DNA from: a virus
IMG/VR virus record: IMGVR_UViG_3300001200_000009
Strand: one strand, 5' to 3'
DNA: 64,000 nt
Part shown: positions 6,091-40,344 of the stretch, piece after piece
How positions within the stretch are numbered: position 1 is the first letter of the stretch
Layout of the letters: the number at the start of each line of letters is the position of its first letter
Made by a program: the position numbers and the translations under genes
Notes under the pieces: generated by a model
What the model was told of the DNA's origin: nothing
Database searches by the model: none
The model's input: only the letters and a program-made list of their open reading frames with translations

Positions 6091-6663
6091 ATGTATTTTC
6101 TTTACGTAACAACAAATAATATCAACGGCAAAAAATACGTGGGGCTATGCTCTATGAAAAAGAAAAATTGGAAAACCTACTTAGGGTCTGGTAAAATCTT
6201 AAAAAGAGCCATATCAAAATATGGAAGAAAATCTTTTTCCAGAGAAATTATAAGCTATTACGATAACCTAGAAAATGTAATAAGTGCGGAGAAAAATTTT
6301 ATATTAGAAAATTCATGCCATCTACGAGACGATTGGTATAATATAGCAGTGTCTTTTACAACGCAAGGATTCAAAGGTAAAAAGCAGTCAGAGTACCATA
6401 AAGAAGTTATGCAAACCCTCTTAACTGGAGTAAAACGTTCTAAAGAAAGCATAAGAAAACAAAAGAAAACAAGGCTAGAAAGAGCAAATGATTACTCATA
6501 TCAAAATCATAGTCCAGAGCAGCGTTTAGCTGCAAGTAAGGTTGGCAAATCCAATAAAGGTAGAAAGCACCTTAAAAAATTATGTGAGCACTGTGGAAAT
6601 CATTACGGGCCTGCGCCTTTTGCAAGATTTCACGGAAATAATTGCAAACAGAAGCCTACTTAA
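6091..6663 (+). CDS. Free-standing GIY-YIG homing endonuclease
   Basis: FLYVTTNNINGKKYVG, YLGSG, C-terminal CEHC; TATAAATA at 6052-6059. Confidence 0.9.
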   Translation: MYFLYVTTNNINGKKYVGLCSMKKKNWKTYLGSGKILKRAISKYGRKSFSREIISYYDNLENVISAEKNFILENSCHLRDDWYNIAVSFTTQGFKGKKQSEYHKEVMQTLLTGVKRSKESIRKQKKTRLERANDYSYQNHSPEQRLAASKVGKSNKGRKHLKKLCEHCGNHYGPAPFARFHGNNCKQKPT

Positions 6664-7912
6664 GCATTTCTTGAATTATAAAATAATGGTCTTCGAAAAA
6701 TTCGGTTGGGTTCATGTCGTCAACATGCATCCAAATGCAGTTAGAAGCGTCGTCGGCCGCTTTGACGTATGGTAACTTGCGATTAGCTGGTAGCTTGTCA
6801 TCCCATAAAGAGAATTCCGAAACTTGAGTATACATTCGTCCTCTTAATGAACGACCGGGATAATCAAAGGTGCGAGTCTTATATTTAATTTGGGCATTGT
6901 CTAACTCTGCGTCAGTTAAACGTATTCCAGTTTCTTCTCTTAGCTCTCGAATGGTAGCCTTTGCAAGAGTTTCATGCGCATCGACATAGCCACCAGGCAG
7001 AGCAAGTAATCCTTTACCAGGAGCATTTGCTCTTTCGACTAGTAGGACATTTTTGCCAGCACGAACAAGAGCATCGACTGTTTGGAAGGTTGGAGGATAG
7101 GGAGCCTTCTCCCATGATTTCTTGTGACCTTCGTAGAAGTCATACTCGTCCCGCATTGGCTTAAAGAGTTTGCCAGCCATGAAACGCTGAATTTGCAACC
7201 AACTTCCTTCTGGAACCTGCTTAAGGAACCGTTCTGATTGTGCTTTGAATTCTTTTTCAGACGTTTTTAGACCATATCCTGCAAACATCATCTCACGAAT
7301 TCCAGTTGCATGCATGCCATCGTTGAGTTCGCCACAGTCGACAAAATCAAATGGTAGCAAGTCAAGGTAATAAGAAGATATGTCAGATTTGTGACCAACG
7401 AGAACAATATCTTCGGGAGCTTCAAACGCTTGAGCCGCCTTAACTATTTGGTCTACCCAATCTGAATCGCTGTATGGACTATCAACGATTGGTTGAATGG
7501 TTACAACGTTTTCATCGCCAGGATGTAGGCAATTTTCAATCATCATTTTACGCTCTTCGAACGTAAATGGATTTTTTGGAGTTCTAGCTGAATCGGTAGA
7601 ACCAACAAGAACTAAGACTTTTTCAGCCTTAGCTTGGGCAGTAAAGATAATAGACAGATGCCCTCTATGAAAGGGCTGGAATCGACCTATTACGACCGCT
7701 AATTTGTGGCAAACTTCTTCGTCATGTCCAGAGTCCTCTTTGACGGCTGATAGGCGTTCGGCAATTTCTTCTTCATCGAACCCAAGAAATTTCATTTGAG
7801 CTGCATAGAGCTCGTCGTTAAATTGAGTATCGCTGACCAGTGGATTACCATACAGCCATTCGTTTTCGATTCGTTCGACTTGGTCTTCCCAAAGTCTCTT
7901 TGACTTGCTCAT
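6656..7912 (-). CDS. Bifunctional NMN adenylyltransferase / Nudix hydrolase (NadM-Nudix, NatV-like)
   Basis: GRFQPFHRGH, KNPF, Nudix box GGYVDAHETLAKATIRELREETG. Confidence 0.93.
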   Translation of the reverse strand: MSKSKRLWEDQVERIENEWLYGNPLVSDTQFNDELYAAQMKFLGFDEEEIAERLSAVKEDSGHDEEVCHKLAVVIGRFQPFHRGHLSIIFTAQAKAEKVLVLVGSTDSARTPKNPFTFEERKMMIENCLHPGDENVVTIQPIVDSPYSDSDWVDQIVKAAQAFEAPEDIVLVGHKSDISSYYLDLLPFDFVDCGELNDGMHATGIREMMFAGYGLKTSEKEFKAQSERFLKQVPEGSWLQIQRFMAGKLFKPMRDEYDFYEGHKKSWEKAPYPPTFQTVDALVRAGKNVLLVERANAPGKGLLALPGGYVDAHETLAKATIRELREETGIRLTDAELDNAQIKYKTRTFDYPGRSLRGRMYTQVSEFSLWDDKLPANRKLPYVKAADDASNCIWMHVDDMNPTEFFEDHYFIIQEMLK

Positions 7913-36848: not shown

Positions 36849-36902
36849 AATCTTTCTCCGTTAAGGGATTATAACATACCCATGGGAAATTGTAAACGTT
36901 TC

Positions 36903-37280
36903 TTATGCGCCTCGGATTTGACGTGCAAGGATAACTGAATCGCCTGGATTTAGCACTGTATCGCCAGAAACTTCATTTGGTCCGTTAAGACGAATGCTGT
37001 AACCAGCCGGGTTAATTTCAGCGGCTTCAAGAGTATCGAAAATTGTCATGCCAGGCTCAAGTGGAACATCAACGGTTTTACCCATTTCCGAGACTGTTAC
37101 GATTTCAATCGTATCGCTGCTTGAAGAACTTGCTTCAGTTTCAGGTGTTGGACCACCTTCAGTTGGCGCGGCATCTTCAATCATATCGGCAATTGTGTTA
37201 CCGCCAGAAGGTTGGTCTTGTAAGTCCATAATAGCTCCTAAGCTAGATGGTGCTTCGCGTGTTAGAGTTGGTGTCGTCAT
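36903..37280 (-). CDS. Ubiquitin-like (ThiS/MoaD beta-grasp) protein with acidic N-terminal extension
   Basis: PGMTIFDTLE..IRLNG..DTVLNPGDSVILARQIRGA; C-terminal RGA. Confidence 0.75.
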   Translation of the reverse strand: MTTPTLTREAPSSLGAIMDLQDQPSGGNTIADMIEDAAPTEGGPTPETEASSSSSDTIEIVTVSEMGKTVDVPLEPGMTIFDTLEAAEINPAGYSIRLNGPNEVSGDTVLNPGDSVILARQIRGA

Positions 37281-37289
37281 GTTGTTCTC

Positions 37290-37982
37290 CTAAGATGTTA
37301 AGACGAATAGCGGGTTTAGCGCCAAGATTTGCTCAAAGTGTGGAGCGTCGCCATCAGGCTTTTCGTTCCACTTTACACCCTGCATAAATCGAGTAACAGC
37401 TAGCGAGGATGTCATTCCAGCCGTTGCTCCAACAGTTGTCTTAGCACTACAAGCGCTTTCAACGGTTTCTTTATCATCAACCAATGTGTTGGTCCATCGT
37501 TTGATGTCTTCACGCTTGCAAGGATTAAATCCATACACTCGTAATTCTTCAATGCCCATCCGAACTTCGACGACGATTTCAGTCGTGAAGTTGTTCTTAA
37601 GCGAGTCTTCAAAAATTTCTTTTCGAGCCTTCATAGTGTCAACCGCAAGGAATACAAATTCACCAAGCTCGACGCCTTCGGTAATGTATTCGTTATGGGC
37701 AGTTACAGAAATGCCGGTCGCTTCTTTGATGCGAGCTTTCATAGCCGTAACCTTGGGTTTGCCTATGTCGCCAAGATAGAAATCTTGGTTGGCAATATTA
37801 TGCGATTCGACTTCATCGCCGTCCCATAGATGGATATTCTTAATGCCAAGTTTGGCTAATTCCATCGCAATCTTGGAGCCTACAGCTCCTACGCCGATTA
37901 CATCTACTCGCTTTTTCTTCATAAGGAACGCGGTATCAAAATGCAATACGTGGCGAGACGTATCTAATCTAGGCTTTGTCAT
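37290..37982 (-). CDS. E1-like ThiF/MoeB adenylase
   Basis: IGVGAVGS, WDGDEVESHNIANQ, GKPKV, LAVD, RM, ESAC. Confidence 0.9.
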   Translation of the reverse strand: MTKPRLDTSRHVLHFDTAFLMKKKRVDVIGVGAVGSKIAMELAKLGIKNIHLWDGDEVESHNIANQDFYLGDIGKPKVTAMKARIKEATGISVTAHNEYITEGVELGEFVFLAVDTMKARKEIFEDSLKNNFTTEIVVEVRMGIEELRVYGFNPCKREDIKRWTNTLVDDKETVESACSAKTTVGATAGMTSSLAVTRFMQGVKWNEKPDGDAPHFEQILALNPLFVLTS

Positions 37983-38904
37983 CTTTAACTTCTCCATTAG
38001 TTGATTTGACAGTTTCAGGTTTAGCATCAACAATTGGTTCTTCAACTGTTTCAGCTGGCTCTTCAAGAATAGCATCGATGATGTCATCAATGGATTCTTC
38101 TGACGGTCCGTCTTTTGGCGTAATCACAGTGGTTTTGCGACCACCCCAAGACCATACCCGTTTCTTGACTTTCTTATCAATCTCGGTTTTAGCCCACTCA
38201 GTGAACTCATTATTTTCATAAGGAGCGCCTTCGACTTCGATATCTGGATGATGAAGTATCTGACGAACAACTCCGCCTTTACCAAGAATATAGACGTGGC
38301 AAGACATGTCAGCGCGTTTGTTACCAATCACACGAATAAAGAATGAGTCAAGGCGTTCGATGAATTCATCTGTTTGGTTCTCATCAACACCACTCGGTGA
38401 AACGCCCATATTTACGTGAGAATGACCCCAGCATTTAAGCTTATTGATTTCTTTATGCCGACCAGTTTCAAGCATCTCATTGATAAGTAATGCAACACCA
38501 TCGATAGTCATGTCAGTCGTAGTCCCTGAACACTCTTGCTCTGGGACAAAAACATCTTCAATCACAAAATTGCCATCGTCCATCATGTCGCATGTAGCCA
38601 TCCAAGATACTTCGATTGAGCATTCTGCAATAAGAGCTTTCATTTTCAGAAATGCGTCTTTCTTGATTATGACTTTTGGCCCTTTACCAGGAAAACTTTC
38701 AATTCTGAAATACTCTCGTGAAGGACGCTTGAACACTCGCGGTTTCGTCACTAATTTAGGTAGATGAGGAACGATTGAGCGTTTTAGATTTTTTTCGGCT
38801 AGCGCCTCTATAGGAGTAACTACAGCTTCTGGTTCAGCAACTACCGGTTTGGTAGTCTCTGGAGGCGGAGGAGTCACAGCTAAATTTGGTGGTATAACTT
38901 TCAT
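37969..38904 (-). CDS. JAB/MPN metalloprotease (prokaryotic)
   Basis: CSIEVSW (E) and WGHSHVNMGVSPSGVD (HSH-x6-S-x2-D). Confidence 0.85.
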   Translation of the reverse strand: MKVIPPNLAVTPPPPETTKPVVAEPEAVVTPIEALAEKNLKRSIVPHLPKLVTKPRVFKRPSREYFRIESFPGKGPKVIIKKDAFLKMKALIAECSIEVSWMATCDMMDDGNFVIEDVFVPEQECSGTTTDMTIDGVALLINEMLETGRHKEINKLKCWGHSHVNMGVSPSGVDENQTDEFIERLDSFFIRVIGNKRADMSCHVYILGKGGVVRQILHHPDIEVEGAPYENNEFTEWAKTEIDKKVKKRVWSWGGRKTTVITPKDGPSEESIDDIIDAILEEPAETVEEPIVDAKPETVKSTNGEVKDDKA

Positions 38905-38908
38905 AATA

Positions 38909-40285
38909 TTAAGCCCTTGGGAAGTTGGAAATTCTTGCGCCCCATTGGTCGTCGGAGTCACAGCCTTTTTCAAAGAATGCTAAAATCAAGGTAAAGGCAG
39001 CCATGATTTCATAGTTAGATAAGTAAGCGGCAAGTTCATCTTGGATATTGCCTTGACAGATGTTGGTACCGCCTTCAAAGCTTCGACCACGACAATGCGG
39101 TAGAGTTGCATTATAATCCAAAGACTTGGCATAAACAACTCTATTTCCACCAAAGCCTAATTTGATTTCCAAACTACCAAGGTCATAATTTCTACGACGC
39201 TTGCGGTCATTGCCGGTTATTCTCTTTGTATGGATGGTTAGAACATCGTCTTTTATACTGACTGACCGCACCTTCGACGATTTTGTAATCTTGTCATAAT
39301 CATTCATAAAGCCAGCAACCGCATTTTCCGAGTCGCCAGACAATTCGAAGTTGGCTAGCTCTCTACGTTGTTTGAAGAGTTTAGCTTCGGCCTTACTAAT
39401 ATTGTTACGCAATTTGTCGGCCATTTTACCGCTTCGGACCACTCGTTGGGCAATGGCATTCTCAACGAATTTTCTAAGATTGAGCTTACGAGTGTTTTCG
39501 ATTCGACGCCTACGAGCTATTTCATCAGCTCTAGCTTTGGCTTCTGCAGCTTTTTTCTTAGCGGCTCTAGCTTTCAACTCAGCTTTATGTCTACGTTCAG
39601 CTTCCCGCATAGCTTCTTCTTCGGCTATACGTTGGCGCTCGGCAGCTTCTCTTTGAGCTTTCTTACGAGCACGTTCTTTGCGTTGCTTCTCGCGAATATT
39701 ATCGTTGGCTAATTTTACCCAATCGATATCGTCATTTAGATAATCACCAGCTTCTTGTAAAGCATCGATAAGAGCAGCAAGAGGAATATTTCCGTTAAGG
39801 ATAATGACACCATCACGAACAACTCCAGCTTTATTTTCAAGCGGATAATCGTGAACACTGAGGGATTTAATTTTATCGCGAATTAGACATAGTTGAATAG
39901 CATCGGGCGATTTTTCGACATCAATACGAGTTGACCATGTTTCTTGGCTGGTGAAGATGTCTACATCGCGCTCAACGATAGGCGTCAGATAAGAACTAAC
40001 AAGCCATTCAAAACGAGAGTCTTCGCTTTCAAGATTTGTTACTCTATGACGTAAAGAGATAGGATTAACGTCACAATCGTCAAGAGCAGCGTCAAGTTCA
40101 AAATATGCGGTAAGATGAGAGTCGCCATCTTTATCAACGTCGACCTTAATAAAGTCACGATTACAGACGCTGATGAATTCCAAAATCTGCGCTTCGGTCA
40201 AATCAGTCGAGCTGATATCGAAGTCAAACTTTTGCCGATAAATGGCTTTTGCCACACAGCTTATTCCGTAGGTCAAATCAGTCAT
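38909..40285 (-). CDS. Coiled-coil protein with C-terminal prokaryotic E2-like domain
   Basis: LPH..G..NICQGN resembles the E2 HPN..G.IC active site; first gene of the operon. Confidence 0.55.
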   Translation of the reverse strand: MTDLTYGISCVAKAIYRQKFDFDISSTDLTEAQILEFISVCNRDFIKVDVDKDGDSHLTAYFELDAALDDCDVNPISLRHRVTNLESEDSRFEWLVSSYLTPIVERDVDIFTSQETWSTRIDVEKSPDAIQLCLIRDKIKSLSVHDYPLENKAGVVRDGVIILNGNIPLAALIDALQEAGDYLNDDIDWVKLANDNIREKQRKERARKKAQREAAERQRIAEEEAMREAERRHKAELKARAAKKKAAEAKARADEIARRRRIENTRKLNLRKFVENAIAQRVVRSGKMADKLRNNISKAEAKLFKQRRELANFELSGDSENAVAGFMNDYDKITKSSKVRSVSIKDDVLTIHTKRITGNDRKRRRNYDLGSLEIKLGFGGNRVVYAKSLDYNATLPHCRGRSFEGGTNICQGNIQDELAAYLSNYEIMAAFTLILAFFEKGCDSDDQWGARISNFPRA

Positions 40286-40344
40286 GAGTGTCCTTGTTCA
40301 TAATAAAGTTATAACATATCGGTCGGTAAAGTAAACGACTAATT

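Follow-up and report, generated by a model that had tools for sequence, protein, structure and literature searches.

A candidate ubiquitin-like conjugation cassette in an early-type transcription unit of a large T4-like phage

Why would a lytic phage carry genes that resemble a ubiquitin-like tag (Ubl), its activating enzyme (E1), a conjugating enzyme (E2) and a tag-cleaving JAB peptidase? To our knowledge, Ubl conjugation in bacteria has been shown experimentally only recently, and only as anti-phage immunity of the host, in priming of the anti-phage signalling system based on cyclic oligonucleotides (CBASS) and in the bacterial ISG15-like (Bil) operons. The question is raised by four genes in a 64,000-nucleotide stretch of viral DNA (the window), which spans positions 74074-138073 of the 159,446-bp IMG/VR record IMGVR_UViG_3300001200_000009, a record estimated to be 88% complete. 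We propose, with a probability of roughly 0.7, that these four genes encode a self-contained Ubl protein-conjugation pathway in what would be one early unit of a T4-like phage. An earlier reading of the letters alone (the sequence-only reading) had already taken E1, E2, JAB and Ubl for one conjugation and deconjugation unit, and this view is supported by the fold and family assignments, the invariant residues and the synteny in 13 other loci described below.

The four open reading frames (ORFs) were confirmed on the minus strand at 40285-36903 and are tightly coupled. As the sequence-only reading had it, they follow their own early-type promoter (40336-40308, directly upstream of gene 1), and a new copy lies directly past gene 4 (36897-36868). 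The unit is laid out as follows:

40308..40336, minus strand: T4-early-type promoter of the operon, GTTTAC-17 nt-TATAAC (motif count and sequence reading)
38909..40285, minus strand: gene 1, a 458-residue E2-like protein (P0001; an ORF with a 61-member family of its C-terminal domain by exhaustive HMMER search)
37969..38904, minus strand: gene 2, a predicted 311-residue JAB/MPN+ metallopeptidase (profile match to Rpn11/PSMD14; invariant JAMM residues)
37290..37982, minus strand: gene 3, a 230-residue single-domain ThiF-type E1 (Pfam ThiF, 7e-20)
36903..37280, minus strand: gene 4, a putative 125-residue Ubl (beta-grasp structure match; C-terminal Arg-Gly)
36868..36897, minus strand: next early-type promoter, taken as the end of the transcription unit (motif scan)

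The ATG of gene 1 has AAGGA ahead of it. Gene 2 most likely starts at ATG 38904, 4 nt past the stop of gene 1, and not at an upstream TTG, while for gene 3 the probable start is ATG 37982, with GGAGAAG ahead of it, which gives an overlap of 14 nt with the end of gene 2. AGGAG stands 6 nt upstream of the start of gene 4.

The E2 assignment of gene 1 was what the sequence-only reading had called its weakest link. The protein divides into three parts, with two residues of particular interest:

39701..40285, minus strand: gene 1 residues 1-195, an N-terminal domain peculiar to this phage
39329..39700, minus strand: residues 196-319, a helical linker rich in Arg, Lys, Glu and Ala (composition; match to the helix that precedes the E2-like domain in the family)
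38912..39328, minus strand: residues 320-458, a predicted UBC/E2-like domain (alignment, AlphaFold2 model, VIA-align, Foldseek)
39095-39097 and 39056-39058, minus strand: codons of His397 and Cys410, both invariant in the E2-like family alignment

An exhaustive HMMER search with gene 1 residues 310-458 gave 61 cluster representatives, 13 of them below 1e-10. In the resulting alignment of 52 sequences, a Thr, a Gly, H80, C93, G95 and P139 (alignment numbering) are invariant and P79, F120, D129 and G132 nearly so, and the family consensus reads PH-x(4-13)-G-x2-C-L-G-N ... F-L-E-S-x-N-x2-D-x-W-G ... W-P. The sequence-only reading had the protein end in an LPH..G..NICQGN motif. The motif, LPHCRGRSFEGGTNICQGN, is indeed present at residues 395-413, but 45 residues before the C-terminus and not at it.

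The AlphaFold2 model of this domain built with the family alignment is confident, with a predicted local distance difference test (pLDDT) score of 92.7 and a predicted TM score (pTM) of 0.86; from the single sequence the E2 region reached a pLDDT of only 55, too poor for use. The model runs, in order, through a helix, four long strands, a loop and three helices. In an exhaustive VIA-align comparison the top match is UBE2S (Z 7.7, 121 residues aligned, root-mean-square deviation 3.8), and about 40 of the 50 listed rows are UBC, UEV or RWD proteins, including BubB (9eav, Z 6.5), Cap2 (7to3) and a CBASS E2 (8hsb). A Foldseek check, suggested in the sequence-only reading together with AlphaFold, agrees: against the PDB and Swiss-Prot, E2s dominate the lists, at weak E-values of 0.05-0.5. 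Among AFDB clusters, family members are matched at TM 0.75-0.83, and one cluster match (TM 0.78, E 6.7e-6) carries the automatic name "UBC core domain-containing protein". An independent Atlas model of gene 1 gives UQ_con, Prok-E2_B and Prok-E2_D rows at TM of about 0.55.

By the order of the modelled elements, His397 and Cys410 sit between strand 4 and helix 2, the place of E2 active sites. As in classical E2s, the Pro-His precedes the Cys, here by 13 residues, and no Asn follows it. Because of these fold neighbours and of the invariant His and Cys at the position of an E2 active site, residues 320-458 are predicted to have a UBC fold, and His397 and Cys410 most likely form its catalytic pair. 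In sum, the confident UBC-like model, the predominance of UBC, UEV and RWD neighbours and the two invariant residues now support the E2 call.

The rest of gene 1 suggests how such an enzyme could find its targets. The linker contains 23 Arg, 23 Ala, 18 Glu and 17 Lys in 125 residues (65% Arg/Lys/Glu/Ala), and over its final 80 residues it can be aligned with the helix that stands before the E2-like domain in the family (E 4e-11). It may be a coiled coil or a single stable alpha-helix. The coiled coil that the sequence-only reading proposed as substrate adaptor is a charged helix of this composition, for which a single-helix spacer is equally possible, and the variable part is the N-terminal domain and not the helix. 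No match to this domain was found when the other 60 members of the family were compared in their N-terminal regions. Since a variable N-terminus is here joined to a conserved catalytic domain, the arrangement suggests that the head serves target recognition. We note that most members share a module of about 200 residues upstream of the E2-like domain, which is barely detectable in gene 1 (E 0.5). The module carries the motifs G-x-F-x-I-x2-W-S-x-P ... W-G ... V-A-E-L-x2-N-x-L-Y-I and matches nothing in Pfam, and the longest members contain two or three copies of it (P0025, P0047, P0053, P0045, P0048, P0049 and P0054).

Gene 3 matches the Pfam model ThiF (PF00899), scoring 71.6 bits where the cut-off is 28.1 (E 7e-20). 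Its PDB matches are ThiF, MoeB, MccB, PaaA and Uba1. All three E1 motifs named in the sequence-only reading (GxGAxG, DxD and ESAC) are found, as GVGAVG, DGD and ESAC, the last containing the candidate catalytic residue:

37449-37451, minus strand: Cys178 of the E1 (in ESAC), invariant in the alignment

Across five aligned cassette E1s, the GVGAVG loop, several Asp residues and Cys178 are invariant, while the other Cys varies. Cys178 stands just ahead of a conserved VG-x-TA helix, at the crossover-loop site of the MoeB/ThiF cysteine. The enzyme is a single domain without CxxC zinc pairs.

For gene 2, in an alignment of 36 sequences, drawn from a family with 76 relatives found, E98, H161, S162, H163, S171 and D174 are invariant, and the following motif was located:

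38383-38424, minus strand: HSH-x7-S-x2-D motif of the JAB (sequence)

The family profile matches Rpn11/PSMD14 (E 7e-6) and CSN5, and among its structural neighbours in the Atlas are entries assigned to the JAB and Prok-JAB families (PF01398/PF14464). The single sequence lies below Pfam detection and reaches 0.011 with the PADLOC JAB model. Both the JAMM zinc site and the MPN fold can be recognised, and gene 2 is accordingly read as a predicted, active-looking JAMM peptidase. The E...HSH...S-x2-D pattern seen earlier is confirmed, except that its spacing is the canonical x7 and not x6.

The tag itself, gene 4, is divided as follows:

36906-37115, minus strand: beta-grasp core, residues 56-125, preceded by an acidic disordered extension, residues 1-55
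36909-36911, minus strand: Gly124
36906-36908, minus strand: Ala125

Pfam, PHROGs, PADLOC and NCBIfam gave no meaningful match to this protein, and a word-index homology search recovered one relative. In the Atlas's low-confidence whole-protein model, residues 59-125 match ThiS (TM 0.90 by hit), RnfH and Mut7-C beta-grasp clusters, which is moderate evidence for a beta-grasp fold. The extension is acidic, rich in Pro, Ser and Thr, and missing from most relatives. The earlier description of this protein largely stands, with a beta-grasp, an IRGA end and an acidic disordered extension, the latter being of about 55 residues and not 60.

Across loci, the tails of these Ubls follow one pattern: [RK]-G, then Ala or Asn, then nothing, one or two residues, or further domains. 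The protein ends in RGA-stop in the window, in P0063 and in L001, in RGAN-stop in L007, in RGN or KGN and a stop in L014 and L015, in KGNC in L017 and in RGNRC in L003. In L020-L022 the protein continues past KGN with another beta-grasp-like segment and then a helical domain; the Saccharibacteria Ubl is fused past ...KIKGN to such a segment and a long helical tail. One IMG/VR locus (L012; UViG_3300002054_000014, 6385-7450) encodes a head-to-tail di-Ubl, each unit ending in SIRGA. The conserved residue after the Gly, Ala in the phage branch and Asn in a second, bacterial branch, is compatible with either a P1' requirement of the peptidase or a functional last residue. As a separate observation on L012, its E1 frame has only 193 codons from stop to stop, and the N-terminus with the nucleotide loop may be missing, frameshifted or misassembled.

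Do these four genes travel together? One search for related loci, with a narrow alignment, led to one IMG/VR locus, and another, with an alignment of the type found in the Candidate Phyla Radiation (CPR), led to nine genome loci. The order E2-like, JAB, E1 is kept in every one of the 13 other distinct loci long enough for judging, and of the 11 whose sequence reaches beyond the E1 for a sufficient length, 10 have the Ubl as the very next gene, L016 being the exception. The loci lie on phage or viral contigs and on CPR bacterial chromosomes, and fall into two branches: a phage branch (E1 63-66% identical; Ubl ending in GA) and a CPR branch (42-45%; ending in GN). The CPR chromosomal contigs (L015, a 0.74-Mb Paceibacterota contig; L020, a 1.2-Mb Saccharibacteria contig; and L016) place the cassette among housekeeping genes, namely those for endonuclease V, an M50 peptidase, HU and RNase Y. 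Because it also occurs in CPR chromosomes, the cassette is neither exclusive to phages nor a phage invention. Searches of 50,697 phage records (megablast, tblastn) with the operon, the E2 protein and the family member P0012 found no match, and the JAB matched a single unverified gut contig; the E2-like family thus occurs in no isolated phage of the collection searched. A full-text literature search, with incomplete coverage, returned no published description of an E2/JAB/E1/Ubl cassette in a lytic phage.

This distribution raises the possibility that the chemistry is as we propose but its purpose defensive, the cassette being a Bil-like weapon with which the phage, and CPR bacteria, tag the proteins of competing phages and exclude superinfection. 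Its presence among housekeeping genes of CPR chromosomes would suit such a role, as would the variable N-terminal region of the E2 protein, which is what one expects of a recognition module in a conflict; moreover, the only stand-alone Ubl/E2/JAB/E1 operons to have been characterised, those of Bil, give defence through the tagging of a phage tail protein (PMC11601596). Against this, the operon lies in the early replication and nucleotide arm of a lytic T4-like genome and in neither a defence island nor a prophage, and PADLOC system models fit it only as generic E1 and JAB matches. We therefore regard the defensive purpose as unlikely. In a more far-reaching reading, a strictly lytic phage would run a complete E1-E2 Ubl conjugation and deconjugation cycle of its own early in infection and would covalently tag host proteins, possibly those of defence, as the sequence-only reading had suggested, or its own, with a cassette family shared with CPR bacteria and distant versions in crAss-like and Flavobacterium phages. 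This biological role is a tentative proposal, which we hold at slightly less than even odds.

Comparison with known systems places the cassette outside each of them. The BilABCD operons of Type I and Type II, with which bacteria defend themselves against phages in an ISG15-like manner (Chambers et al.; Hor et al.; PMC10557695), resemble the phage unit in that Ubl, E2, JAB and E1 are each encoded by a gene of their own. In Type II Bil, the Ubl has a universally conserved Gly, behind which stand up to nine residues (PMC10557695). A conserved Gly followed by non-conserved residues implies maturation by the JAB in both, and tandem beta-grasp Ubls occur in some relatives. In E. aridi, BilA ends in Gly97-Ala98, an end that blocks ATP binding, which indicates that its last Ala has to be removed (PMC10557695). 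The differences concern the enzymes. The phage E1 is a single 230-residue ThiF domain, in contrast to the Bil E1 architecture (PMC11601596), and the phage E2 has a Pro-His upstream of its Cys, whereas in the 6d (Type I Bil) E2s no His stands upstream and a downstream His is used instead (Iyer et al. 2006), and Cys138 of the Type II BilB of E. aridi is paired with the downstream His151 (PMC10557695). Gene order, the long N-terminal extension of the E2, the lack of a sequence-level match and the carrier, a lytic phage, differ as well. Membership in BilABCD was rejected on the single-domain E1 and the upstream His.

Type II CBASS comes closer in its enzymes: Cap2 has a single-domain E1 with a crossover-loop Cys and an E2 with an upstream His and a Cys, and is partnered by a JAB (Cap3). 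In contrast to the phage cassette, Cap2 is a fusion of E2 and E1, and the substrate is not a beta-grasp Ubl but a cGAS/DncV-like nucleotidyltransferase (CD-NTase). No CD-NTase (SMODS) gene was found in the whole phage record, and membership was rejected on this and on the separation of E2 and E1.

The Bub/6E pathway (DUF6527; PMC11601596), a diverged Ubl pathway of bacteria, resembles the cassette in its E2-fold protein, its Ubl precursors and its proteins with several Ubls. In 6E operons the E1 is typically fused with a JAB or some other N-terminal domain, and the catalytic Cys is missing from the E2-fold domain (Iyer et al. 2006). We rejected membership since the JAMM peptidase of the phage is a protein by itself and the E2-like domain has kept its Cys, which is invariant. 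Iyer et al. (2006) distinguished five types of E1/E2/JAB operon (6a-6e), with the Ubl-JAB pair of lambda/T1 tail assembly as the only phage case, and none of their types has the architecture found here. Assignment to PRTRC was likewise rejected, the PRTRC_ThiF score being 51 bits against a cut-off of 144.75. Since the cassette lacks the defining features of Bil, of CBASS Cap2/Cap3 and of Bub, we consider it a previously undescribed variant among bacterial-type Ubl conjugation systems.

The resemblance to CBASS also bears on whether the phage enzymes might act on host Ubl immunity, that is on Type II CBASS priming or Bil, for instance with the JAB stripping conjugates of the host or the E1 and E2 drawing off its substrates, in which case there would be no autonomous cycle. 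The best PADLOC matches of the E1 are CBASS Cap2 E1-E2 models (7e-17 to 1e-8), and the E2-like domain has Cap2 and the CBASS E2 as structural neighbours. The Cap2 matches, however, span only the generic Rossmann half of the E1, and the cassette always includes a Ubl of its own, whose C-terminal motif is conserved, and occurs in CPR chromosomes, where counter-defence makes little sense. Such a role is therefore highly improbable.

A further comparison concerns systems that have no E2 at all. Ubl and sulfur-carrier systems of this kind include archaeal SAMP/UbaA/HvJAMM1, Thermus TtuB/TtuC, ThiS/ThiF, MoaD/MoeB, QbsE/QbsC/QbsD and CysO/Mec. Like the phage unit, they combine a JAMM peptidase and a minimal E1 of the ThiF type with a beta-grasp protein that has a Gly at its C-terminus. 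Examples of capped sulfur carriers that a JAB trims are QbsE (by QbsD) and CysO (by Mec), and TtuB of Thermus serves in both ways, carrying sulfur and modifying proteins. In this light gene 4 could be a sulfur carrier, trimmed by the JAB, adenylated and thiocarboxylated by the E1 and used as sulfur donor, for instance in thiolation of the many phage tRNAs or in cofactor synthesis, with the UBC-like domain as a non-catalytic scaffold. The window does contain 16 tRNA genes, the nearest structure clusters of the Ubl are of the ThiS family, and the best NCBIfam matches of the E1 are ThiF/ThiS adenylyltransferases. The NCBIfam ThiF and MoeB scores nevertheless lie far below the family cut-offs, with no equivalog reached. 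Moreover, rhodanese (PF00581), cysteine desulfurase (PF00266) and PP-loop (PF01171) domains, all recovered in control genomes, are missing from the 159-kb record, although host enzymes could substitute. Nor does the record contain a thiazole or molybdopterin gene (ThiG and MoaE were not searched separately), in keeping with the sequence-only reading, which had seen no thiazole synthase, molybdopterin or sulfur-transfer gene in the operon. The E2-less systems are tied to sulfur-transfer enzymes, whereas an E2-like gene with invariant Cys and His always comes first in the cassette, and tandem and domain-fused Ubl precursors suit the biology of a modifier. A sulfur-carrier function is, in our estimate, quite improbable.

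For a conjugation pathway, the assignments above point to the following sequence of events: (I) the JAB would mature the tag at its Arg-Gly-Ala end, cleaving either after Gly124 or after Ala125, and probably also strip the tag from its targets; (II) the ThiF-type E1 would adenylate the C-terminal carboxylate of the tag and hold it as a thioester on the crossover-loop Cys178; (III) the tag would move to Cys410 of the UBC-like domain of the 458-residue protein; and (IV) it would be transferred to an amine of the target, most likely a lysine. The target would be recruited by the variable N-terminal domain, which the long charged helix would keep apart from the catalytic domain. All of these chemical steps, together with the cleavage position, the early timing and the target, are inferred.

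Several points weigh against this proposal. The E2 assignment rests on fold and motif position, without sequence homology: none of 52 family members has a UQ_con or Prok-E2_A-E match in Pfam at E up to 1, and the family profile matches no PDB sequence. A word-index search with the E2 region recovered only the query itself, and Pfam, PHROGs, PADLOC and NCBIfam returned nothing meaningful for the 458-residue protein. Foldseek E-values of 0.05-0.5 and VIA-align Z scores of at most 7.7 fall in a range that can reflect a common arrangement of elements only. In the E1 family, the conserved Arg of the nucleotide-binding motif N-x-x-R-Q is missing; where the closest solved ThiF-type protein has NLNRQ, the family has HNIANQ (residues 60-65; window 37787-37804), with Asn65 invariant in place of the Arg. 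The combination of a JAB, an E1 and a C-terminally capped beta-grasp protein is also known from sulfur-carrier pathways. Finally, the operon sequence was present in DNA runs only (probable source sample: an algae metagenome) and in no RNA run. A complex prediction for the E1, the Ubl core and the E2 domain scored 0.09 against a mark of 0.32 and counts neither for nor against.

The genomic surroundings are those of a large uncultured T4-like phage. Nearly all genes of the window lie on the minus strand, and they include a UvsX-like recombinase, a gp41-type DnaB helicase, an ATP-dependent ligase, NAMPT, an NMNAT/Nudix protein and an HNH endonuclease. Eleven copies of GTTTAC-N15-20-TATAAY lie between positions 378 and 63879 of the window, every one on the minus strand, against 0.11 copies expected by chance, and these T4-early-like promoters divide the region into short transcription units. 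The early promoter consensus of T4 is GTTTAC/TATAAT. Because the operon promoter resembles this consensus, we infer by analogy that the operon is transcribed early.

If the phage does run such a cycle of its own early in infection, no ubiquitination-type cascade owned by a virus would have been known before in the prokaryotic world. With a complete set of tag, E1, E2 and peptidase, expressed from an early promoter, the chemistry of bacterial immunity would stand on the other side of the conflict. The cassette would also offer a minimal cascade for mechanistic study, with an E1 of 230 residues and an E2 domain of 140. The family of its E2-like domain, with 61 clusters or more, is not recognised by any domain database, and genome annotation therefore misses such systems; related phage E1s are currently annotated as "thiamine biosynthesis protein". 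That large phages and ultra-small CPR bacteria share the cassette bears on the pre-eukaryotic spread of E1-E2 cascades.

Related but distinct arrangements were seen in other phages. In the Flavobacterium phage FpV4 (L005:628-5730) and the crAss-like Kehishuvirus "tikkala" (L006:258-5466), a cassette lies by the replication genes. Its first protein has an N-terminal beta-grasp-like part that ends in ...KSGG or ...KSGA and continues into another domain; next come a protein of 420-428 residues with GYMHSH...C, a JAB (annotated "metalloprotease") and the E1 carrying the thiamine annotation. The BFVD fold matches of the E2-like model include crAss-like and 420-residue phage proteins, and hhalign found no sequence relation between the E2-like profile and the 420-residue proteins of FpV4 and Kehishuvirus. 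The unverified gut phage contig MT835544.1 (L023:901-6000) encodes a JAB that matches the family profile at E 2e-73, and an E1. Upstream of these two genes are a 514-residue protein with a PQPH-x5-C-x-RG motif and a small ORF, and downstream is a reverse-transcriptase-like ORF with a YADD motif.

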